From: Actinomycetota bacterium
GTDB taxonomy: Bacteria; Actinomycetota; Thermoleophilia; Gaiellales; Gaiellaceae
DNA length: 42,873 bases
Reading direction: 5' to 3'
Assembly: GCA_039648845.1 (NCBI GenBank)
Contig: JBBWZE010000244.1
Location: forward strand, 1 to 42,873
The notes below the pieces were generated by a model, which ran no database searches, was not told the origin of the DNA, and saw only the letters and a program-made list of their open reading frames with translations. Of the stretch, positions 1-15,787 are shown piece after piece. The first letter of the stretch is position 1. Each line of letters begins with the position of its first letter. The translations under genes were made by a program, and so were the position numbers.

Positions 1-104
1 CCGACGCCCGCGGCGGCGAGGGCGACTTCGGCGGCGGGATGAGCTTCGGCGGCGGCGACTTCGGGGGCGGCGGAGGTGGCGGTGGAGGCGGAGGCGACTT
101 CTAA
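1..104 (+). CDS. 3' end of a CDS truncated by the window edge; glycine-rich C-terminal tail (...GGMSFGGGDFGGGGGGGGGGGDF*)
   Basis: Frame 3 is open from the window edge to TAA at 102-104 and contains a run of GGN glycine codons. It resembles the Gly-rich tails of TPM/YgcG-type proteins but is too short to assign. Confidence 0.4.
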   Translation, partial: DARGGEGDFGGGMSFGGGDFGGGGGGGGGGGDF

Positions 105-128
105 CCGGGCGTCGGCCAGACTGCGTCA

Positions 129-1079
129 GTGATCCACTCCGTCCTCCACGCGATCGGCGTCTTCTTCCACCATCTTGCTGCGGTTGAATGGAAGTGGCTC
201 GCGCTCGGGATCCTCTGCCACCTTTGCAAGCTCCTTGCGGTCTCGCGGGCTTGGCGGAACATCATCCAGGCGGCGTATCCCGATCGCCCCGTGCGCTGGC
301 GTCAGATGTTCGGCGCGTACGTCGCCGGGACTGGAGTGAACGCGCTCATTCCCGCTCGCGGGGGCGACGTCGTGCGCCTCTTCCTCGCGAAGCGGCGTAT
401 CGAGGGCTCGAACTACACGACGCTCGTCTCGACCTCGTTGCTGCAGACGCTTTTCGACCTGGTCGTAGCGAGCTGCTTCATCGCGTGGGCGGTCACGCAG
501 CACGTGCTGCCGGGCCTCGACGTGCTCCGTAGCCCGAGCCTCCCTGCACTCGACTACGGCTGGGCTTTCCGCCATCCGTTGGCCGGACTCATTTTGGTCG
601 GACTCCTACTTATCTTCGGAACGGCGCTCGTGGCCTGGATCGCCGAGCGCGTCGAGGAATTTCGGGCAAAAGTCGCACAGGGCTTCGCAGCATTTCGGGA
701 CCGCTCGTACTACCTGCGGCGCGTCGTCCTCTGGCAGCTCGTCGACTGGTCGCTCCGCCTTGCGACCGTCTTCTTCTTCTTACGAGCCTTCGGAATACCG
801 GCCACGCTCCGCAACGCGCTCTTGGTGCAGGTGAGCCAGAGCCTCGCCACGATCTTCCCGGTCAGTCCGGCCGGAATCGGCACGGAGCAGGCTCTGCTCG
901 TCTATATCTTTCGCAACGTCACGTCCAAGAGCTTGGCGCTCAGCTTCAGCGTCGGCATGCGCGTGACGCTCATCATCGTGAACGCGGTGGTCGGTTTCAC
1001 CGCGATCTTGCTCATGACCGGAACCTTGCGGATCCGTCGGCAGGCCGACGCCGATCGCGCCGGCGCGGAGCCGGCGTAA
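129..1079 (+). CDS. Multi-pass membrane protein, lysylphosphatidylglycerol-synthase TM-region / flippase-like (UPF0104) family
   Basis: 316-aa ORF with a GTG start. It has several hydrophobic helices and the family-typical segment 'FGAYVAGTGVNALIPARGGDVVRLFL'. A paralogue lies at 6825-7823. Confidence 0.7.
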   Translation: MIHSVLHAIGVFFHHLAAVEWKWLALGILCHLCKLLAVSRAWRNIIQAAYPDRPVRWRQMFGAYVAGTGVNALIPARGGDVVRLFLAKRRIEGSNYTTLVSTSLLQTLFDLVVASCFIAWAVTQHVLPGLDVLRSPSLPALDYGWAFRHPLAGLILVGLLLIFGTALVAWIAERVEEFRAKVAQGFAAFRDRSYYLRRVVLWQLVDWSLRLATVFFFLRAFGIPATLRNALLVQVSQSLATIFPVSPAGIGTEQALLVYIFRNVTSKSLALSFSVGMRVTLIIVNAVVGFTAILLMTGTLRIRRQADADRAGAEPA

Positions 1080-1089
1080 GCGAAGCGCT

Positions 1090-1119
1090 CAGACGGCCGC
1101 TACTGAAAGCGACCGTCTG
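1090..1119. terminator. GC-rich hairpin between convergent genes; likely bidirectional terminator
   Basis: CAGACGG...CCGTCTG outer stem plus inner CGCT/AGCG pairs give about 12 bp around a 6-nt loop. The TAG stop of the small peptide ORF (1100-1102) lies inside the hairpin. There is no clear U-tract. Confidence 0.5.
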
Positions 1120-1261
1120 AGAAACCGTCCGAGTTCCAGCCTCCGTTGCTGTTGCTCACAGCCGGCGAATGGGGATTCTTGGGCTGTGCCCACGCGTTGC
1201 CGACGCCGAACGTCACGGCGACCACGACAAGAGCTCCCAAGGAGAACATCTTCCGCAGCAT
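1100..1261 (-). CDS. Small secreted propeptide (53 aa): MLRKMFSLGALVVVAVTFGVGNAWA|QPKNPHSPAVSNSNGGWNSDGFSDGRFQ
   Basis: The ATG at 1259-1261 is preceded by a near-perfect SD (GAGGAGGTGATCAGG-ATG). The N-terminus has a classic n-h-c signal peptide with an AWA-Q signal peptidase I site. It starts 23 nt after the TAA stop of the HTH-TPR gene. The ORF track shows a 61-aa version from an upstream ATG that overlaps that stop (TAATG). Confidence 0.6.
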   Translation of the reverse strand: MLRKMFSLGALVVVAVTFGVGNAWAQPKNPHSPAVSNSNGGWNSDGFSDGRFQ

Positions 1262-1284
1262 CCTGATCACCTCCTCTCGTTGCA

Positions 1285-2619
1285 TTAGAACCGCACATCC
1301 TGCAAGGCTTCTGCCGCACGCCGGTAGAGCGCAGCAGCGGCACTGTCGTCGCCGCGCCGTGACGCAAGATCGCCCTGCGCAGTCCAGGCGACGGCACGAT
1401 GGCTGGCGGAGGAAAGCTGTGACAGGCTGAGCTCGGCCTCGGCGAAGGCCTGCTCGGCTTCATCGAGCCGCTGTTGTTCCAGGAGGGCACGACCGAGGAC
1501 GATCTGAGCGTTGCCGATCTCGTCCAGAAAGTCCGGGCGCCCCGCCAGCAGCTCGAGCGCATGTCGGGACTGCTCTTCGGCCAAGCTCCAATCGGCGGCG
1601 CCGAGGTGGACCTGCGCGAGCGAGGAGACCGCCTGGGCCGCGTCGGCATCGCTGCCGATTTCGAGCGCAACCGAGAAGGCACGCTTGAGATACGAGATTG
1701 CGTCGTCAGACTTGCCGAGGAGGTAGTTCAGGCCGCCGAGGTTGTTGAGCATGCGGCCGAGGTTCTGCCGGTCGCCGTGCTCCTCGTACAGCTCCTTTGC
1801 TCGCTCGGCGAGTGTCCGCGCACGAAGCCAGTGACCGTCGCGTTCGGCGACGAGTGACGCTTGGAACGTGATGTGCGCGACGGTGAGCGTGTCGTCGAGG
1901 CGCTCGGCGAGTTCGAGAGCGCGCTCGATGTCCTCCCGCGCCGCCTCGAAATCGCGCTGACGGCGTGAGCAACGGGAACGCCACTCGAGAATGTGAGAGC
2001 GCAGCCGGTCGCAGGGATCACCCGAGCGGTCGGCAAGCTCGAGCGCTTCGCTCAGCAGCGTCTGCGCGGTGTTGATCGACGTGAGCTTGTAGCGGCAGAC
2101 ACCCATCCGATACAGCACCTCGGCGCGCTCGACATCCGAGAAGCCCGCCTGCTCGGCCAGTTCACGCGCGCGGACAAGGAGCTCGAGGGCCGGGCGAAGC
2201 TCTGCGCCTGCCATTCGCGCCCAGGCTTCGGCGAGCAACGCGCGGAACTCGAGCTCACGAGCCTCCGGCGAGAACTCCAGGCCGGCCAGGGCTTCCAGCG
2301 CTTCGTCGTATTGCTGTCCCTCGACGGCAGCCTCGGCGCGCGTGATCGCGGCCTCGACCTCTGCGTATTCGTCCCAGGACTGACCGGTCTCCAGGTAGGA
2401 GACGTCGACTCCGAGCCGCTCGCCGATCCAGGAAAGTGTCTCTTTCGTCGGGCGCGTCTTGCCGCGCTCGATCTGGCTCATGTACTCCTTCGAGAAGCGC
2501 TCGCCCGCCAGCTCGGACTGCGTCAGCCCCGCGGCAACGCGAAGCTGGCGTAGGCGGGTGCCTAGGCCCGAAGTCGCGCGCTGCGGCGCGCGCTGGGGTG
2601 TGAGGATGCGGCCTTCCAT
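1285..2619 (-). CDS. XRE-family helix-turn-helix transcriptional regulator with a long C-terminal TPR-like helical-repeat domain (444 aa)
   Basis: Internal ATG at 2617-2619 (MEGRILTPQ...), with the upstream part of the 631-aa track ORF being Arg/Ser-rich run-through. The HTH motif is 'LGTRLRQLRVAAGLTQSELAGERFSKEYMSQIERGKTRPT'. It is followed by about 380 aa of Ala/Leu/Glu/Arg-rich repeats typical of TPR. Confidence 0.85.
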   Translation of the reverse strand: MEGRILTPQRAPQRATSGLGTRLRQLRVAAGLTQSELAGERFSKEYMSQIERGKTRPTKETLSWIGERLGVDVSYLETGQSWDEYAEVEAAITRAEAAVEGQQYDEALEALAGLEFSPEARELEFRALLAEAWARMAGAELRPALELLVRARELAEQAGFSDVERAEVLYRMGVCRYKLTSINTAQTLLSEALELADRSGDPCDRLRSHILEWRSRCSRRQRDFEAAREDIERALELAERLDDTLTVAHITFQASLVAERDGHWLRARTLAERAKELYEEHGDRQNLGRMLNNLGGLNYLLGKSDDAISYLKRAFSVALEIGSDADAAQAVSSLAQVHLGAADWSLAEEQSRHALELLAGRPDFLDEIGNAQIVLGRALLEQQRLDEAEQAFAEAELSLSQLSSASHRAVAWTAQGDLASRRGDDSAAAALYRRAAEALQDVRF

Positions 2620-2701
2620 GTTGCGGCCCTTCACGTATCGGCCGCCAGCTACTCCATGAGGATCACTTGCGCGAGTGCCCCCCATCGAGGGACTGGGGGA
2701 T

Positions 2702-4862: not shown

Positions 4863-6128
4863 TTGCCGAAGCCCCGATCCCTTATCGCACTCCTCTGCGC
4901 TTTCGCGGCCCTGGCCGCGCCGGCCCACGCTTTTGGCAGCGACCGGATGTACATGGGCGCGGCCGAAGACGAGGGCCGCAACGCCGATCCCGCGGTGGCG
5001 ATGGCGAAGATGCAGCTCGCCAAGGCGGCCGGTTTCGACACGATCAGGATCACGGCGATCTGGGAGCCCGGTCAGAGCGCGGTTCCCGCCACTCAGCTTC
5101 AGGCGCTCCAGTCGATCGCAGCCGCAGGCACCTTCCTGGGCATTCGCGTTGCCGCGACGGTCATGAATTTCGGGAGCCGGACGACGCCTCTGACCGCTGC
5201 CTCGCGCACCCAGTTCGCCCGTTTCGCGGCCGACATGGTCAGGCGCGTCCCGAGCATCCGCGAATATATCGTGGGGAACGAGCCGAACCTGAACCGCTAT
5301 TGGCTCCCCCAGTTCGGGCCGAACGGCGAGGATGCCGCCGCGACCGCTTACGTGCAGCTGCTCGCGCGCACCTACGACGCGATGAAGGCGGCGGACAAGG
5401 GTGTCTTCATCATCGGCGGCTCGGTCTCGCCACGCGGAATCGACCGGCCCGGCACCGGCCGCGACACACACTCGCCGACAACCTTCATCACGGACATGGG
5501 AACCGCGTATCGCGCGCTCAAGCGGACCCGGCCGATCATGGACGGCTTCTCGTTCCACCCGTACGGCGAGAACTCGAGCACGCCGCCGACCTTCGAGCAC
5601 ACGACCGGCACGTCACTCGGCCTGGGCGATTACGACAAGCTCGTCGGTCTGCTCGGGACCGCGTTCGACGGCACGGCGCAGATCGGCTCGAAGCTCCCGA
5701 TCGTCTACGACGAGTACGGCGTCGACTCCCAGATCCCGGACGGCAAGCGACGCTTCTACAGCGGGAAGGAGCCTGCCACGACAAAGCCGACGACCGAAGG
5801 CGTGCAGGCAGCCTATTACCGGGAGGCCCTCGCGATGGCCGCCTGCCAGCCGACGGTGCGCGGCTTCCTGATCTTCCACGTCACGGACGAGACCGACTAC
5901 AACCGCTGGCAGTCCGGCGTCTATTACGCCGACGGGACACCGAAGTCGTCGCGGGCGTTCGTGAAGCAGACGATGGCCGAGATCCGGTCGGGGGCTGTGG
6001 ATTGCGGCCAGCCGCCGCCTGCGGGCTCCAAGGCAGGCTGGGTCGTCGCCACGGCTGCCGAATTCGCGGCGGCGGAGAAGGGCTCCTCCCTCGTCGGCGG
6101 CTGGGTCCGCGCCGGCTCCTCGGGCTAA
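4863..6128 (+). CDS. Secreted TIM-barrel glycoside-hydrolase-like protein (clan GH-A features)
   Basis: TTG start and signal peptide MPKPRSLIALLCAFAALAAPAHA. 'IVGNEPN' is a candidate acid/base NEP motif and 'IVYDEYGV' a candidate nucleophile Glu. The specific family was not determined. Confidence 0.55.
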   Translation: MPKPRSLIALLCAFAALAAPAHAFGSDRMYMGAAEDEGRNADPAVAMAKMQLAKAAGFDTIRITAIWEPGQSAVPATQLQALQSIAAAGTFLGIRVAATVMNFGSRTTPLTAASRTQFARFAADMVRRVPSIREYIVGNEPNLNRYWLPQFGPNGEDAAATAYVQLLARTYDAMKAADKGVFIIGGSVSPRGIDRPGTGRDTHSPTTFITDMGTAYRALKRTRPIMDGFSFHPYGENSSTPPTFEHTTGTSLGLGDYDKLVGLLGTAFDGTAQIGSKLPIVYDEYGVDSQIPDGKRRFYSGKEPATTKPTTEGVQAAYYREALAMAACQPTVRGFLIFHVTDETDYNRWQSGVYYADGTPKSSRAFVKQTMAEIRSGAVDCGQPPPAGSKAGWVVATAAEFAAAEKGSSLVGGWVRAGSSG

Positions 6129-6138
6129 CATTTCTTCC

Positions 6139-6828
6139 GTGGAGGGGCAGTACGTCGCCTACAGCTTCTTCCGGATCGATCCGGCCTGGCGGCGTCTGCC
6201 GATCGAGGAACGCGCCGCGGGAAAGGATGCCTTCGCGGAGGTCGTGGAGGACTGGGCCGGACGGATGGACTCGCTGCGCACCTATACGCTCACCGGGGTC
6301 AGGCCCGACTCCGATTTCTTCCTCTGGAAGATCACGCAACGTTACGAGGATCTGGGAGAGCTCGGCGCTGCACTGAATGGCACGCCGCTCACTGCCTGGC
6401 TCGAGACGCCCTACTCCTATCTCGCGACCACCAAGGCATCCGAGTACACCAAGGCAAGGCGCGCGCGAAAGGTCGTTCCCAAAGGCTCGCCCTATCTCGT
6501 CGTGTACCCATTTGTGAAGGTGCGGCCGTGGTACGCGCTGTCGCTCGAGGAGCGCCAGGCTGCGATGGAGGAGCACATGCGTATCGGCGCCGAGTTCGAG
6601 ACGATCCACAACCACACCACGTACTCGTTCGGGATCGACGATCAGGAGTTCATGACGGCGTTCGAATGCGACGAGCCGTCTGACTTCATGCACCTCATGC
6701 TCACGCTGCGCGAGAGCGAAGCGTCGCGTTACACCGAGCGTGACACGCCGATCTTCGTCGGCCAGCACGTCGACATTCGCACTGCGCTCGACGCGCTCGA
6801 CGGAAAGGCTGCGCGCGTTCGGGCTTAG
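6139..6828 (+). CDS. hemQ: Coproheme decarboxylase / chlorite-dismutase-family protein (HemQ/ChdC)
   Basis: 229 aa with a GTG start. It shows the actinobacterial HemQ pattern '...YLVVYPFVKVRPWYALSLEERQAAMEEHMRIG...' and a family-typical length. Confidence 0.8.
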   Translation: MEGQYVAYSFFRIDPAWRRLPIEERAAGKDAFAEVVEDWAGRMDSLRTYTLTGVRPDSDFFLWKITQRYEDLGELGAALNGTPLTAWLETPYSYLATTKASEYTKARRARKVVPKGSPYLVVYPFVKVRPWYALSLEERQAAMEEHMRIGAEFETIHNHTTYSFGIDDQEFMTAFECDEPSDFMHLMLTLRESEASRYTERDTPIFVGQHVDIRTALDALDGKAARVRA

Positions 6829-7823
6829 CGGGCCTCGGCGAGGTCGCGCCAGCGCTTCAGATGCCGGAGGCCGACCGCAGCCGGCAACAGCGGCAACCAG
6901 AGGTTGAAGATCCTGTAGGCAAAGACCGCGAGGATAGCCTTGGCGAGCGGAATGCCCGCCCACGCCAGCGCGAACGACACGAGCGCCTCCACCGAGCCGG
7001 CGCCGGCGAGTGGCAGGGTACGCCGGGAAAGGGCGTAGCCCGTGGCGTAGCCGATCACGAGCGCCGCAAGATCCGGCGAGTCGTGGAACGCGCGCAGGCA
7101 CGCCCACAAGCAGCCGACATCGCCGACCCAGTAGAGCGTCGTGCCGAAGAAGGCGCCGCCGTACTCCGCTCCCTGGACAGCGAGGCTCTTGAGCATCTGG
7201 ACCGCGTCCAACGCGTGCCGCAGCACGGAGCGCCACCGACCCTTCTCTCCGACCTGGTGACGACGCGCCAGGGCCGCGAAGGCGGCGGCGAACCCGAGCG
7301 GCACGGCGATGACCCACGGAAGCGTGAACCCGAGGCTCGGGTGGGTCGACCCACGCGCGAGCAGAATGACCGCGGCCAAAGCTGCAGCCGGCGCCAGAAC
7401 CGCGTACTCCAGCGCTCCGAGCCCGAGGACGCGAGCCCGCGCCTCGCGCGGATTCATACCGGCTGCCTCGAGCGCCTGCCTGTCGACGACGAAACCACCG
7501 CGAATCACGAACACGCCGAACCCGGCGGCGACGATCGCCCCAGCGCGTCCGAGCCCGAGGCGGGGACCGCCCTCCACGCGCACGACTTCGCGGTAGGCGA
7601 CGACGTAGCCGAGGTAAGCGGCTAGCTCCATCCCGAACGCGACCGGCAGCCAGAGCGGGTCGATATGGCGGAGCTCGCGCAGGACGCTCTCGAATCCGGC
7701 GGCCCAGGAGATGCCGACGGCGGCGCCAAGCGCAAGCACGGCGCCGATCCCAACGAGCAGAGCATGCTGGGCCGGGTGCCGATCCAGATGAGGCAGTGGC
7801 CGAAGGAGGCGCCTGAGGGTCAC
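6825..7823 (-). CDS. Multi-pass membrane protein, lysylphosphatidylglycerol-synthase TM-region / flippase-like (UPF0104) family
   Basis: 332 aa with 6-8 predicted TM helices and a C-terminal 'AILAVFAYRIFNLWLPLLPA' typical of the family. Its TAA stop (6825-6827) overlaps the hemQ TAG stop (6826-6828) on the opposite strand. Confidence 0.65.
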   Translation of the reverse strand: MTLRRLLRPLPHLDRHPAQHALLVGIGAVLALGAAVGISWAAGFESVLRELRHIDPLWLPVAFGMELAAYLGYVVAYREVVRVEGGPRLGLGRAGAIVAAGFGVFVIRGGFVVDRQALEAAGMNPREARARVLGLGALEYAVLAPAAALAAVILLARGSTHPSLGFTLPWVIAVPLGFAAAFAALARRHQVGEKGRWRSVLRHALDAVQMLKSLAVQGAEYGGAFFGTTLYWVGDVGCLWACLRAFHDSPDLAALVIGYATGYALSRRTLPLAGAGSVEALVSFALAWAGIPLAKAILAVFAYRIFNLWLPLLPAAVGLRHLKRWRDLAEAR

Positions 7824-13202: not shown

Positions 13203-13286
13203 TGCGGATGAGAGGACTTGAACCTCCACGGGGTTGCCCCCACACGGACCTGAACCGTGCGCGTCTACCAATTCCGCCACATCCGC
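13203..13286 (-). tRNA. tRNA-Leu (anticodon CAG), class II with a long variable arm; CCA not encoded
   Basis: Folded by hand. Acceptor stem GCGGATG/CATCCGC; D-arm GCG-GAATTGGTAGA-CGC; anticodon stem CACGG/CCGTG with loop TTCAGGT; variable arm GGGG-GCAA-CCCC; T-arm GGAGG-TTCAAGT-CCTCT; discriminator A. Confidence 0.9.
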
Positions 13287-13438: not shown

Positions 13439-15787
13439 GTGCTCGTGACGCTCAAGGCGCCGCCGCTAGCCGAGGTGTTCACGCGGCAGGGGACGCTCTC
13501 CTTCTCCTCTTTCGCGCGACCGAACCGCCTGCTGTTGAGTGCGCCCGCAAGCCGCAGCTACCTGCAGCGGCTCGATTCTGCCCAGCGTCTACTGGAGGCC
13601 AGGATCCGCACCAGAATCCCCGCTGCCCGTGTGCGCTGGCGTTTCGGGGTCGTCCTCGACGGCTTCGCCGTCGTAGTCCCGCGCTCGCAGGTCACTTCGC
13701 TCTCGAGGATGGCGGGCGTCCAGGTCTGGCCGAGCATCCGGTACCACACGCTCCTCGACAGGACGCCGCAGCTGATCGGCGCGCCGAGCCTTTGGGGGCC
13801 GACGCTGTCGACCGCAGGTCAGGGAATGAAGATCGCGATCGTCGATGACGGTATCGACCAGACGCACCCGTTCTTCGCTCCGGCCGGTTACACATATCCG
13901 CCCGGCTTTCCGAAGGGTCAGACTGCGTACACGACGCCGAAAGTGATCGTCGCCAGAGCGTTTGCGCCTGCGACGCCGGCCTACGCGAACGCAAAGCTCC
14001 CGTTCGATCCAGAGCTCTCCGACCACGGCATCCATGTCGCCGGCATAGCGGCGGGAAACAACAACACGCTCACTCGAAGCGGATTCCGGCTCTCCGGGAT
14101 CGCGCCACGTGCGTACCTGGGTAACTACAAGGCACTCGGCATCCCGAGCGAGTTCGGTGCGAACGGCAACTCACCAGAGCTTGCCGCCGCCATCGAGATG
14201 GCGGTGCGAGACGGCATGGACGTCATCAATCTCTCGCTCGGCGAGACCGAGATCGACCCGACCCGAGACCTGGTCGTGAGGGCGCTGAACGCCGCCGCCG
14301 ACGCGGGCGTCGTCTCGACAATCGCGACCGGGAACGATTTCGGGGAATTCGGCTTCGGGTCGATCACCTCACCCGGGAGCGCCGCCAAGGGGATCTCTGT
14401 CGCAGCATCGAGCGGCGGCCACGGCAGCCCGGACGTGGACCAGGTTGCGGACTTCTCGTCCGCCGGCCCGACGCCGTACTCACTGCTCTTCAAGCCCGAC
14501 GTCACCGCGCCGGGCGAGAGCGTGCTCTCGGCCGCACCCGAGGGCGGCTTCGTCGAGATGAGCGGGACCAGCATGTCGGCACCGCACGTCGCCGGTGCGG
14601 CGGCCGTGCTGGGCCAGCGTCACCCGACCTGGACGCCTGCCCAGGTCAAGTCCGCGCTCGTGCTCACAGGTGTCCCCGTTCGTAACGGCGGCACCAGCGA
14701 GGTCAACCCTTTACGTGAGGGAGGCGGCCGGATCGATCTGGTTCAAGCCGATCAGCCGCTCGTCTTCGCGAGCCCGACCAACCTCTCGTTCGGATTGCTG
14801 AAGCCGCGCGCGATTGCGCGGCGCACGCTGAGCCTCGCGGACGCAGGAGCAGGTGCTGGAGTCTGGAGCGTTGCCACCAGCGCCCCCCGGGTGCCGCTCG
14901 CGGTTCCGCCTCAGGTCACCGTGCCCGGTCTCCTGCCCGTGCGCGTGGTCGTGCCTCGGAACGCGCGCGAAGGTGTGTCGACCGGATTCGTGATCCTCGC
15001 GCGCGGCGGCATCAGGCGAAGAATCCCCTTCTGGTTCCGGGTCGAGCGCCCGCGGCTTCGGCTCAATCGACGCGTCGCGCTGGTGCGGCCCGGTGACCAC
15101 GAGGCGAACACCACGCGCGGCGCCGCCCGAGTGACGTCGTATCGCTATCCCGACGTCCTGCCCGGCCAAGCTCCCTTCCCAGTCCGGCTCAGTGGACGCG
15201 AAGTCGTGTATCGGGTCCACATACGCCGTCGGATCGCGAACTTCGGCGTGGCGGTGATCGCACGCGGCCGCGGCGTCGGAGTCGAGCCCCGCGTCGTTCG
15301 CGCCGGCGACGAGAACCGGCTCACCGGCTACACGGCTTTGCCTTTCGACCAGAATCCCTACCGCAGCACCTACGGGCGTCACAGGCTCGTCGCCGGCGCG
15401 GTCCTACCTGCTCCCGGTGTGTACGACATCGTCTTCGACACGCCACGGGGTGCGCGCTCGGGCGCGTTCCGTTTCCGGTTCTGGCAGGGCGACGTCCAGC
15501 CTCCTTCGGTGCGAGTGCTCGGCATTCGCAATCAGTTCCTCGAGCTGGCGGTCAGTGACCGCGGCTCAGGGGTCGATCCGCTGTCGCTTCAGGTTCAAGT
15601 CGACGGGAACATCGTGTCGGCCTCGTACGCGTCCGGCCACGCGCGCTTGCCCGTTGCCGATTTCGCACGCGGGCGCCACGCATTGACCTTCACCGTCTCC
15701 GACTATCAGGAGACCAAGAACATGGAGGACGTCGCCCGCATCCTCCCGAACACCCGGACGCTGCGGACGACTTTCGTGCGGCCGTAG
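13439..15787 (+). CDS. Secreted subtilisin-like serine peptidase (S8 family) with I9-like propeptide and C-terminal beta-rich domains
   Basis: Asp 'IAIVDDGID', His 'HGIHVAGIAAG' and Ser 'SGTSMSAPHVAGAAAVL'. The first canonical start is GTG 13439. However, the in-frame upstream sequence (from about 13355/13364) encodes a signal peptide '..RRGLLICGLLALSTAPAAHA', so the true start is probably upstream and non-canonical. Confidence 0.85.
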   Translation: MLVTLKAPPLAEVFTRQGTLSFSSFARPNRLLLSAPASRSYLQRLDSAQRLLEARIRTRIPAARVRWRFGVVLDGFAVVVPRSQVTSLSRMAGVQVWPSIRYHTLLDRTPQLIGAPSLWGPTLSTAGQGMKIAIVDDGIDQTHPFFAPAGYTYPPGFPKGQTAYTTPKVIVARAFAPATPAYANAKLPFDPELSDHGIHVAGIAAGNNNTLTRSGFRLSGIAPRAYLGNYKALGIPSEFGANGNSPELAAAIEMAVRDGMDVINLSLGETEIDPTRDLVVRALNAAADAGVVSTIATGNDFGEFGFGSITSPGSAAKGISVAASSGGHGSPDVDQVADFSSAGPTPYSLLFKPDVTAPGESVLSAAPEGGFVEMSGTSMSAPHVAGAAAVLGQRHPTWTPAQVKSALVLTGVPVRNGGTSEVNPLREGGGRIDLVQADQPLVFASPTNLSFGLLKPRAIARRTLSLADAGAGAGVWSVATSAPRVPLAVPPQVTVPGLLPVRVVVPRNAREGVSTGFVILARGGIRRRIPFWFRVERPRLRLNRRVALVRPGDHEANTTRGAARVTSYRYPDVLPGQAPFPVRLSGREVVYRVHIRRRIANFGVAVIARGRGVGVEPRVVRAGDENRLTGYTALPFDQNPYRSTYGRHRLVAGAVLPAPGVYDIVFDTPRGARSGAFRFRFWQGDVQPPSVRVLGIRNQFLELAVSDRGSGVDPLSLQVQVDGNIVSASYASGHARLPVADFARGRHALTFTVSDYQETKNMEDVARILPNTRTLRTTFVRP

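Follow-up and report, generated by a model that had tools for sequence, protein, structure and literature searches.

The 42.9-kb stretch of DNA analyzed here (hereafter the window, that is, the whole sequence at its full length) comes from a Gaiellaceae soil actinobacterium and holds, on its minus strand, a gene for a 444-aa regulator followed by a mini-open reading frame (mini-ORF) of 53 codons, which starts 23 nt after the regulator stop on the same strand. A first-pass annotation, made from the letters alone, had seen in this pair a receptor and a propeptide of the RRNPP quorum-sensing type: a helix-turn-helix (HTH) domain of the XRE type fused to TPRs, coupled to a small ORF with a near-consensus Shine-Dalgarno (SD) sequence, a Sec-type signal peptide and a hydrophilic tail ending in GFSDGRFQ. 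Each of these elements is indeed there, the regulator by its reading frame, Pfam matches and an AlphaFold2 (AF2) model, the mini-ORF by its recurrence in related loci, and the signal peptide by heuristic analysis together with a conserved A-x-A. Below we describe the pair and its relatives, and weigh what such a module may do.

The regulator and its companion mini-ORF

Beyond the N-terminal HTH, several TPR models of Pfam match the regulator over approximately residues 140-441 (TPR_12 at 1.7e-21, along with TPR_2, TPR_1, TPR_8 and TPR_MalT). An AF2 model based on 32 diverse members of the family (predicted local distance difference test, pLDDT, 91.3; predicted template-modeling score, pTM, 0.79) displays five short HTH helices and then an uninterrupted TPR stack, with neither a membrane segment nor a signal peptide. 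A Foldseek comparison of this model with the PDB, of the kind that the first-pass annotation had proposed, does recover PlcR and Rap, but only behind generic TPR proteins. The best matches are the TPR domains of LGN/Pins (E 2e-9, TM-score up to 0.76 on the target), whose inner groove accommodates peptides in extended form, and designed consensus TPRs, while the RRNPP receptors appear among ranks 34-49. These comprise PlcR with PapR7 and DNA (3u3w; E 7e-7, TM-score 0.58 on the target, nearly the whole chain covered), the Rap protein of phage phi3T with pheromones (8rsv, 8rsu, 8rst) and RapJ with its peptide (4gyo), the Rap matches having E ~1e-6 and TM-scores of 0.65-0.67. NprR lies outside the top 50, and among viral predicted structures Foldseek returned only giant-virus TPR proteins and no AimR.

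Sequence searches give a comparable picture. Against the PDB, phmmer finds RapF at E 0.01 and PlcR at 0.06, the latter through the HTH alone, together with the HTH domains of ClgR, ComR (weakly), DdrO and the 434 repressor; a profile search finds RapJ at 3.7e-8 and the TPR region of AfsR at ~1e-7, with consensus TPRs, LGN and kinesin light chain scoring far better. In NCBIfam there are weak HTH matches to HipB-like and spr1629-like families and a weak TPR match to HaaT, a TPR protein of the biosynthesis of peptides made on the ribosome and modified after translation (RiPPs; 1.3e-8), all far below the curated cut-offs. As modeled, the fold and the order of domains are those of the HTH-type RRNPP receptors; homology to any particular subfamily is not claimed.

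The product of the mini-ORF is MLRKMFSLGALVVVAVTFGVGNAWAQPKNPHSPAVSNSNGGWNSDGFSDGRFQ, in which MLRKMFSLGALVVVAVTFGVGNAWA constitutes the predicted signal peptide and QPK...DGFSDGRFQ the part that would remain after cleavage. Its SD in most relatives reads AAAGGAGGTGATC, which is the complement of the 16S rRNA 3' end, and the SD in the window is a long match to that end; GGAGGTG and the 6-nt spacer are retained in nearly all relatives, with start codons varying among ATG, GTG and TTG. An alternative start, the ATG at 1285 that overlaps the regulator stop (TAATG, 1283-1287, minus strand), would yield 61 aa (MQREEVIR-MLRK...), and longer starts of this sort are chosen by some gene callers (clusters of 60-63 aa). 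This upstream ATG is not conserved across loci, whereas the SD-driven ATG at 1261 is. Throughout the family the layout is one of one to three N-terminal K/R residues, 12-20 hydrophobic residues, a variable linker and a short conserved C-terminal motif. Within the window's clade the signal-peptidase-I-type A-x-A at residues 23-25 is conserved as AWA, AAA or ASA, D or E precedes GFSDGR, and the tail after the core is ragged (0-3 aa). The product has no Pfam match at E <= 1 and no NCBIfam match. To judge by sequence, its arrangement of a signal, a variable spacer and a conserved, occasionally tandem, C-terminal unit matches that of the Phr, PapR and AimP propeptides.

Relatives of the regulator are abundant, with 7,202 of 8,000 scored candidates reaching E <= 1e-5 and, in a library clustered at 50% identity, 229 representatives reaching E <= 1e-30. 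When one genome per species was scanned, 46 loci of 53-98% identity emerged, all from Gaiellaceae, Thermoleophilia or unclassified Actinomycetota metagenome-assembled genomes, and mostly with one copy per genome. In 40 of these a complete ORF, preceded by a GGAGGTG or GGGGGTG SD, begins 15-23 nt past the regulator stop, in two more (L012 and L020) the ORF begins at a contig end, and the remaining four have no downstream sequence, so that the ORF is present in 42 of 42 informative loci. A scan of metagenomes, for which distant members of the family served as seeds, added 80 loci, nearly all with the same arrangement. When a single parser was applied to related loci from Thermoleophilia genomes and soil metagenomes, the pair was found in 110 of 118, the other eight being mostly contig ends or spacings that the parser disallows. 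The flanks differ from locus to locus (uvrC, hrcA-dnaJ, a glycosyltransferase or a small RNA) and only the link between regulator and peptide is constant; this association is far beyond chance. Independent gene callers have placed the mini-ORF in 403 protein clusters, nearly all the named ones being labeled 'hypothetical' and none having a Pfam domain.

The association persists at the limits of the family. Four distant regulators (P0134, P0137, P0139 and P0240), 38-44% identical to that of the window, are each accompanied by a small ORF whose product terminates in ...GGFFDGH, ...GGRGFHEW or ...GGGWFDGS, and the mini-ORF stands beside essentially all orthologs, which is the synteny that the first-pass annotation had named as a check on its proposal. 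The peptide ORF next to P0240 is on the opposite strand, which indicates that the link is independent of operon structure. At 32% identity, a regulator (P0208) with a SHOCT-domain neighbor in place of the peptide ORF marks the edge of the family. A scan of viral contigs recovered no relatives, and tblastn against phage and plasmid collections gave HTH-level matches only, plus one 30%-identical protein of a Streptomyces megaplasmid. This last locus (Streptomyces sp. ADI95-16 plasmid NZ_CP033582.1, 384979-387021; our L134) codes for a 463-aa HTH-TPR regulator whose alignment takes in 84% of the query. Two small ORFs, of 71 and 70 aa and both with signal-peptide-like hydrophobic segments, come after it, and a BTAD regulator lies next door; the layout of a receptor and a small secreted peptide may be wider in Actinomycetota.

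Selection and diversification of the C-terminal motif

Constraint within the mini-ORF is concentrated at its C-terminus. The GFSDGR core occurs in 118 of 120 clusters of the window's clade, and pairwise Nei-Gojobori estimates within this clade place the ratio of nonsynonymous to synonymous differences (pN/pS) at 0.03 in the core motif, as against 0.36 in the signal peptide, 0.43 in the linker and 0.145 in the regulator. Purifying selection, for which the first-pass annotation had suggested looking, is thus plain in the C-terminal hexapeptide. Synonymous differences are themselves fewer in the core (pS 0.11) than in the linker (0.42), and part of this low rate arises because the SDGR codons form the 5' arm of a hairpin at the stop codon (described below). 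The sister clades retain the peptide motif in forms such as GLWDGP, SWFDGH and GMSDGG using other codons and without a hairpin at the stop, and second copies of the motif are likewise encoded by different codons. Taking all peptides together, a DG falls within the last eight residues in 93 of 110, compared with 8.7 ± 2.7 (maximum 20) in 1,000 shuffles.

The motif falls into several classes, namely G[FM]SDGR, SWFDG[HL], G[ML]xDGG[YF]W, xWWDGP / GLWDGP, GFFDG[HT], DGP[HS][DE]G, a tandem (S[AM]FDGG)n and a different GGR[MF]x[YIM] class. About 10 propeptides carry two to four tandem copies, with examples in L098 (...SMFDGGSAFDGGSAFDGGSMFDGH), L016 (...DGFSDGRASAGPGADGFSDGRA) and L035; the multi-copy loci include L016, L035, L063, L067, L068, L095, L098, L119 and L127, and the GFSDGR core itself is duplicated in L016, L035 and one metagenomic cluster. 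Many of the linkers that precede these motifs abound in His and Gly (e.g., GHHGVG, HHHPNG and GHGHGGG).

A further regularity concerns the relation between the peptide and its neighboring regulator. Receptor pairs that are at least 80% identical have the same peptide class in 95-100% of cases, pairs at 70-80% identity in 34%, and pairs below 70% in 0-4%; on these sequence comparisons, the motif class changes together with the receptor clade. Eleven receptor positions are conserved within, and differ between, peptide classes. In overall conservation the A helices, which line the concave face of the superhelix, and the B helices of its convex face show no clear difference, and we have made no use of that comparison.

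Hairpins, upstream regions and a candidate small RNA

A GC-rich hairpin encloses the stop codon of the mini-ORF. Among 30 close-clade loci, 26 retain it, and the compensatory changes there (CAGACGG/CCGTCTG against CGGACGG/CCGTCCG, and GGTCGC/GCGACC or GGCCGC/GCGGCC against the G·U form) argue that it is under selection. The first-pass annotation had called it a strong terminator. That the hairpin surrounds the stop is correct, but no T-run follows it and a terminator scan did not call it, so that 'terminator' is an interpretation of its role. It is probably either a T-less factor-independent terminator or a stabilizer of the mRNA 3' end, common to the pair and to the convergent gene that ends at 1079.

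The same annotation had placed the pair directly after uvrC with no obvious promoter of its own. uvrC does adjoin, and a consensus scan for promoters and terminators around the pair found no sigma-70 consensus and nothing else relevant, but the spacer contains conserved blocks and a hairpin around the regulator SD. The blocks read AGTCCCTCGATGGGGGGCACTCGCGCAAGTGATCC and then GGCCGATAC..G..GGCCGCAAC 5' of the ATG. The close clade has, upstream of the regulator, AGTCCCTCGATGGGGGGCACTCGCGCAAG[TC]GATCC or the variant GTCACTCGTTCGGGTCACTCGCGCAAGCGAT, in addition to a GGCC...GGCC hairpin 5' of the ATG, and the blocks CACT[CT]GCGC and CAAGTGAT are common to the spacer and to the promoter/operator region of the sister clades. 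On this pattern of conservation, the spacer is a probable promoter/operator region. The regulator SD is weak, being GAAGG in the window and GGAGG in relatives, and the pairing of the hairpin that holds it is kept in relatives with other arms (e.g., GGCACG...CGTGCC); this hairpin could limit translation of the receptor. The combination of a near-perfect SD on the mini-ORF with a weak, hairpin-held SD on the regulator would imply a high ratio of peptide to receptor.

In the sister clades uvrC is not the neighbor, and a highly conserved non-coding block of ~250 nt lies instead upstream of the regulator. It includes a candidate small RNA (sRNA) of ~190 nt, recovered with nhmmer and always divergent from the regulator. 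This element has a consensus-like promoter (TTGACT-17 nt-TATAGT), is strongly structured (minimum free energy -103 kcal/mol, z = -4.5), shows compensatory changes at 13 of 23 RNAalifold pairs, displays an invariant GCCGCAG in two hairpin loops, and ends in a GC hairpin followed by a T-run. The gene beyond it is usually convergent, which makes it a candidate for a stand-alone sRNA. No Rfam family matches these loci at the gathering score or at E <= 1. With nhmmer the element is absent from the close clade and from the window, where even E <= 100 gives nothing credible. Pairing of the GCCGCAG loops with the translation start of the regulator or peptide was considered and dropped, since CTGCGG showed no enrichment by position.

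Between the sRNA promoter and the regulator, the sister clades carry operator-like sequences. The 7-mer GTCAAGT, which 85 of 112 upstream regions contain, is complementary to the -35 of the sRNA promoter; direct repeats AGTCAAGTAGCTCGGTCAAGTGATT lie ~20-60 nt 5' of the regulator with the half-site GTCAAG present four times; and a palindrome, GAAGTCAAG-N6-TTGACTTC, stands ~30 nt 5' of the regulator start in loci such as L066, L076 and L088. The palindrome and repeats also overlap -35 hexamers. By their sequence and position, the GTCAAGT repeats and the palindrome are plausible candidate operator sites for an XRE dimer. Of these operator-like sequences, the window retains only CAAGTGAT (2662-2669) and CACTCGCGC.

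The surroundings of the pair in the window are those of an ordinary chromosome, with no mobile-element genes seen in the Pfam and Rfam annotation. They include uvrC, a HemQ-like protein, peroxiredoxins, an NlpC/P60 protein, an S8 subtilase, M24 and M20 peptidases, a Liv-type ABC transporter, an HMGL-like enzyme, CoxG, a molybdopterin dehydrogenase and one tRNA. The subtilase gene (782 aa, 13439-15787, plus strand) is 12 kb from the pair and nothing ties it to the module; in Bacillus, Phr peptides are matured by subtilisin-type proteases. The LPG_synthase_TM/flippase-like gene convergent with the mini-ORF has a paralog, likewise coding for a membrane protein, at 6825-7823 (minus strand). A gene cut by the start of the window (1-106, plus strand) has an extremely Gly-rich C-terminal end (...GEGDFGGGMSFGGGDFGGGGGGGGGGGDF, then the stop), which resembles the Gly-rich tails of membrane proteins of the TPM/DUF2207 type; that it also looks like the FDGG peptide motif is probably a coincidence. 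Divergent from uvrC is a gene (4863-6128, plus strand) for an uncharacterized secreted protein of 421 aa with the signal peptide MPKPRSLIALLCAFAALAAPAHA and no Pfam match at E <= 1e-4.

Table 1. Features of the regulator/mini-ORF locus in the window, and elements of related loci
Feature	Position	Strand	Description and basis
uvrC	ends 2702	-	Pfam GIY-YIG, UVR, UvrC RNase H and HhH domains
uvrC-regulator intergenic spacer	2620..2701	-	82 nt; conserved blocks across close-clade loci
Inverted repeat GCGGCC-N11-GGCCGC	2623..2646	-	directly 5' of the regulator start; loop and 3' arm hold the weak SD
Receptor/regulator gene	1285..2619	-	444 aa; ATG 2619, TAA 1287-1285; ORF and translation
XRE-type HTH DNA-binding domain	2386..2565	-	residues 19-78; Pfam HTH_31 1e-10, HTH_3 8e-7 (residues 19-76)
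TPR-like superhelix, all-helical	1303..2376	-	residues 82-439; 18 helices, ~9 repeats; Pfam and AF2 model; proposed peptide-binding domain
Mini-ORF SD, near-perfect	1265..1278	-	GAGAGGAGGTGATC / GAGGAGGTGATC; 6 nt 5' of ATG
Mini-ORF (propeptide gene)	1100..1261	-	53 aa; ATG 1261, TAG 1102-1100
Sec-type signal peptide (predicted)	1187..1261	-	residues 1-25; heuristic: n-region MLRK, h-region FSLGALVVVAVTF, A-W-A site before Q
Pro-region linker	1130..1186	-	residues 26-44, QPKNPHSPAVSNSNGGWNS; variable length, highest pN/pS in the gene
C-terminal core DGFSDGR	1109..1129	-	residues 45-51; proposed mature signal; FQ tail in the window
Stop-codon hairpin	1088..1121	-	14 bp, GC-rich; CTCAGACGGTCGCT-ttcagt-AGCGGCCGTCTGAG; fold computed; 5' arm is the SDGR codons
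LPG_synthase_TM/flippase-like gene	129-1079	+	convergent with the mini-ORF, with which it shares the hairpin region 1088-1121
tRNA gene	13203-13286	-	Rfam RF00005, 53.7 bits; sole Rfam match in the window
Candidate sRNA, ~190 nt	L066:356-551; ~87 sister-clade loci (L033-L129)	minus strand of locus	divergent from the regulator; nhmmer
Small ORF beside P0134	22 nt downstream		MLTSKRLQLLILAATVIGAILGGHGHGGGFVGH
Small ORF beside P0137	151 nt downstream		...LAGGFFDGH
P0139 and small ORF	L133:2501-4027 (metagenomic contig)		...HHHRGGRGFHEW, peptide MRILTRRPAVLLWATSLALFLAQVHHHRGGRGFHEW; pair inserted into the heat-shock operon, with hrcA on one side and dnaJ on the other
Small ORF beside P0240		opposite strand	57 aa, end GGGWFDGS

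A proposed peptide-signaling module and its known counterparts

On balance, and by analogy, we lean toward the view that the pair is a chromosomal module of a peptide signal and its receptor working like RRNPP quorum sensing, with NprR-NprX and PlcR-PapR as the nearest analogs. The gene pair and its conservation, the export-type N-terminus, the pattern of selection, the motif repeats, the co-diversification with the receptor and the receptor fold are established above; from these we infer a sequence of events in which co-transcription, the target genes and every biochemical step are conditional. Both genes would be co-transcribed, the receptor being translated from its weak, partly hairpin-masked SD and the 53-aa prepropeptide from its near-perfect one, giving an excess of peptide. 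The prepropeptide would be exported via Sec and cleaved after A-W-A (residue 25), and extracellular proteases would cut the 28-aa pro-peptide down to a short peptide from its C-terminus, built around (D/E)GFSDGR. At sufficient concentration this peptide would enter the cell, presumably through an oligopeptide permease whose genes lie elsewhere, and would bind the concave face of the TPR superhelix, altering DNA binding by the XRE-HTH. The likely targets would be the module's own upstream region and, in the sister clades, also the divergent sRNA, whose sigma-70-like promoter overlaps the GTCAAGT repeats and lies near the GAAGTCAAG...TTGACTTC palindrome.

More tentatively, and with the scales tipped slightly the other way, this would be the first RRNPP-type family of peptide quorum sensing with a cytoplasmic receptor outside Bacillota: a single-copy, vertically inherited module spread throughout Thermoleophilia (Gaiellales and relatives), with at least eight pherotypes built on aromatic-x-D-G and an apparently ancestral divergent sRNA, likely a direct output, that was lost or relocated in the window's uvrC-linked clade.

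Several observations weigh against a module of the RRNPP kind. In both the Foldseek and the profile searches generic TPR proteins (LGN, consensus TPRs, kinesin light chain and those of giant viruses) outrank the RRNPP receptors, and the receptor matches no RRNPP-specific family in Pfam or NCBIfam. The first-pass interpretation is supported in its architecture and gene organization, and not by homology, the structural and sequence similarity to RRNPP receptors being no better than that to generic TPRs. The absence of an adjacent Opp importer, which that annotation had itself remarked on, extends to the whole window, where Pfam annotation of 31 ORFs reveals no oligopeptide-binding protein, no Opp/Dpp permease and only the Liv-type amino-acid ABC transporter. 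Many of the short sister-clade peptides (29-40 aa) have no clear A-x-A site, and may stay anchored in the membrane or need another route of export or processing. Simple co-inheritance, too, would be expected to make peptide and receptor diversify together. The class-specific receptor positions (H209, V247, D366, E367 and N370 included) do favor the A helices of the TPRs, seven against one in a B helix, but the enrichment falls short of significance at 0.05 (Fisher p = 0.07) and is only suggestive, as shared ancestry could also yield it. Finally, the module is single-copy, chromosomal and vertically inherited, unlike most RRNPP systems of Bacillota, which are multi-copy and often on mobile elements. 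None of the outcomes open to computation that had been named at the outset as fatal to the proposal, such as a mini-ORF missing or free of purifying selection next to orthologs, was encountered.

Part of this evidence would also suit an exported or membrane-anchored small protein whose site of action is the cell exterior or the membrane, for instance as a ligand for some other sensor, as a peptide that is adhesive or metal-binding (His/Gly-rich), or as a factor of the envelope, with the HTH-TPR protein only regulating it or sharing its operon, and with no re-import or binding. The signal- or membrane-type N-terminus, the predicted outward-facing position of the conserved motif, the frequent His/Gly-rich linkers, the short forms lacking clear signal-peptidase sites, the want of an importer nearby in the window and the generic character of the TPRs in structure searches are all in line with it. 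We nevertheless judge this main rival unlikely, though deserving of serious consideration: no other gene is consistently linked, with only the regulator-peptide pair surviving changes of flank; the peptide class switches with the receptor clade; and tandem units of 5-7 aa are more in keeping with a small ligand that is released than with a structural protein.

The tight genetic coupling and the strong SD could also be accounted for by an uncleaved membrane small protein that tethers and inactivates the TPR-HTH protein as an anti-regulator, in a partner-switch without a diffusible signal, and the short sister-clade versions do resemble single-pass membrane peptides. However, with the positive N-terminus inside, just ~4 residues (MLRK) would be cytoplasmic, the conserved part is the extracytoplasmic C-terminus and not the membrane segment or the N-terminus, and the A-x-A cleavage site is conserved in the window's clade, all of which render such tethering improbable.

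We give little credence, no PADLOC or toxin-antitoxin family search having been made, to a toxin-antitoxin-like pair, in which the XRE-HTH protein would be the antitoxin, the mini-ORF a small hydrophobic membrane toxin and the sister-clade sRNA a type I antitoxin. XRE HTH domains are common in antitoxins, as the weak HipB-like and spr1629-like matches recall, the small protein is hydrophobic and the sRNA does adjoin in sister clades; yet the conserved element is a hydrophilic, tandemly repeated C-terminal motif, a 360-aa TPR domain is no antitoxin feature, the sRNA is more than 1.4 kb from the peptide gene and the complement of its loop motif is not enriched at the peptide's ribosome-binding site, and the unit is a single-copy core gene that is not on phages or plasmids. 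As to type II systems specifically, these pair an HTH antitoxin of ~70-130 aa with a globular toxin, and the present proteins are a regulator of 444 aa and a 53-aa signal-peptide protein without a family match.

Equally slight, in our estimation, is the chance that the mini-ORF is a RiPP or bacteriocin precursor with the TPR-HTH protein as its pathway regulator. A small precursor-like ORF with a conserved C-terminal core, along with the weak HaaT match of the TPR region, would accord with this, but no modification, immunity or dedicated export genes lie beside the pair in the contexts examined, a Sec signal peptide takes the place of a RiPP leader and the downstream gene is convergent. The neighbors are uvrC and the convergent LPG_synthase_TM/flippase-like gene in the window, and the sRNA, hrcA/dnaJ or a glycosyltransferase elsewhere. 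That the mini-ORF is a chance frame in GC-rich DNA, with an RNA hairpin or terminator as the conserved entity, draws on the SDGR codons of the hairpin arm, which could depress synonymous change in the core, and is effectively refuted by the different codons of the hairpin-less sister clades and of second motif copies, and by a frame, SD and start codon kept in 110 of 118 loci.

Returning to a peptide-signaling module as the preferred reading, the literature searched confines RRNPP systems to Bacillota and their mobile elements (phages and plasmids), much as the first-pass annotation had stated, and describes Actinomycetota as using small-molecule signals (PMC10075063). Of two large RRNPP surveys, one scanned only Firmicutes and viruses and the other used subfamily hidden Markov models, which would miss the receptor of this module. 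We found no report of RRNPP-type systems in Actinomycetota in the literature searched, the coverage of which is incomplete, such that prior work is possible. If confirmed, the module would extend peptide communication through cytoplasmic receptors to a second Gram-positive phylum, as a chromosomal pair conserved throughout an entire class of soil actinobacteria that are abundant and for the most part uncultured. It would also provide natural classes of receptor/peptide specificity for studying pherotype evolution, point to a new sRNA as a signaling output, and offer synthetic-peptide handles on Gaiellales physiology, perhaps toward better cultivation. The hypothesis is directly testable with one hexa- to octapeptide and one purified protein.

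Among characterized regulators of the same phylum, the TPRs of AfsR and NsdA and the HTH domains of RamB and ClgR give weak matches to the receptor. It has neither the NB-ARC/ATPase nor the BTAD domain of the SARP/AfsR proteins; the AfsR and TPR_MalT matches cover the TPR region only and are far below cut-offs, and the ATPase module of AfsR- or MalT-type (STAND) regulators is lacking. WhiJ-type XRE regulators have a conserved small partner gene. The pairing of an XRE protein with DUF397 is not what is seen here, for the mini-ORF has no Pfam match, its N-terminus is a signal or membrane segment and the partner is predicted to be exported.

The Rgg-SHP and ComR-ComS systems of streptococci join an HTH and TPR-like receptor to a hydrophobic peptide of ~20-35 aa with a C-terminal signal, a format similar to that of the 29-40-aa sister-clade peptides (e.g., MKIQALLTLTALAAFVAKFHLMVGHFDGR); the window's peptide differs in its predicted classical Sec signal, and no Rgg_C-type domain was detected in the receptor. 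SHP and ComS depend on a dedicated exporter and the membrane protease Eep. Rap proteins are TPR receptors that bind the C-terminal penta- or hexapeptide of a Sec propeptide, some of these being multi-copy, as in the tandem loci of the module, and multi-pheromone propeptides are documented for Rap, AimR, PlcR and NprR systems (PMC9765709, PMC11343458). Rap, however, has an N-terminal three-helix bundle in place of the HTH, acts on proteins as a phosphatase or anti-activator, and is multi-copy and often on mobile elements. In the arbitrium system of Bacillus phages (AimR-AimP-AimX), a short Sec propeptide comes after an HTH and TPR receptor and supplies the signal as its C-terminal hexapeptide, and the output is a small non-coding transcript, aimX, to which the linked candidate sRNA of the sister clades may be compared. 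Here the differences are that the module is chromosomal, with no relatives in viral contigs or phage records and no AimR among the structural matches, and that the sRNA is upstream and divergent instead of downstream, with none beside the window's copy.

The closest parallels are in the Bacillus cereus group. PlcR too is an HTH and TPR receptor with papR directly downstream, the active peptide of PapR is formed by the C-terminal 5-7 residues of the exported propeptide, and peptide classes ('pherotypes') co-vary with receptor clades. PlcR differs in having five degenerate TPRs (293 aa) against the ~9 canonical ones here, and its sequence match is restricted to the HTH. NprR is ~420 aa in length, similar to the present 444, and likewise combines an N-terminal XRE-type HTH with ~9 TPRs. 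NprX is encoded directly downstream on the same strand as a propeptide of ~45-55 aa with a Sec signal peptide, and its signal is a short peptide from the pro-region, as is proposed for the module. The two are set apart by their receptors, which are alike only in generic TPR/HTH terms, by their hosts (Actinomycetota, Thermoleophilia versus the Bacillus cereus group) and by the placement of the motif, at the extreme C-terminus in the module and internal in NprX.

The strict definition employed by RRNPP_detector is a TPR receptor of 250-500 aa beside a Sec propeptide of 10-100 aa (PMC10075063), and the module falls within it, the export part by heuristic signal-peptide analysis; it likewise displays four of six listed RRNPP features, namely the TPR receptor, the XRE-HTH, the adjacent propeptide gene and the signal-like sequence signature. 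Since the matches single out no known subfamily, we describe it as RRNPP-like by architecture, treat its receptors as an unclassified family, and assign it to none of Rap, NprR, PlcR, AimR or Rgg. As read from the sequence, that architecture, an HTH and TPR receptor with a small signal-peptide ORF 23 nt downstream, is identical to that of the NprR, PlcR and AimR systems.

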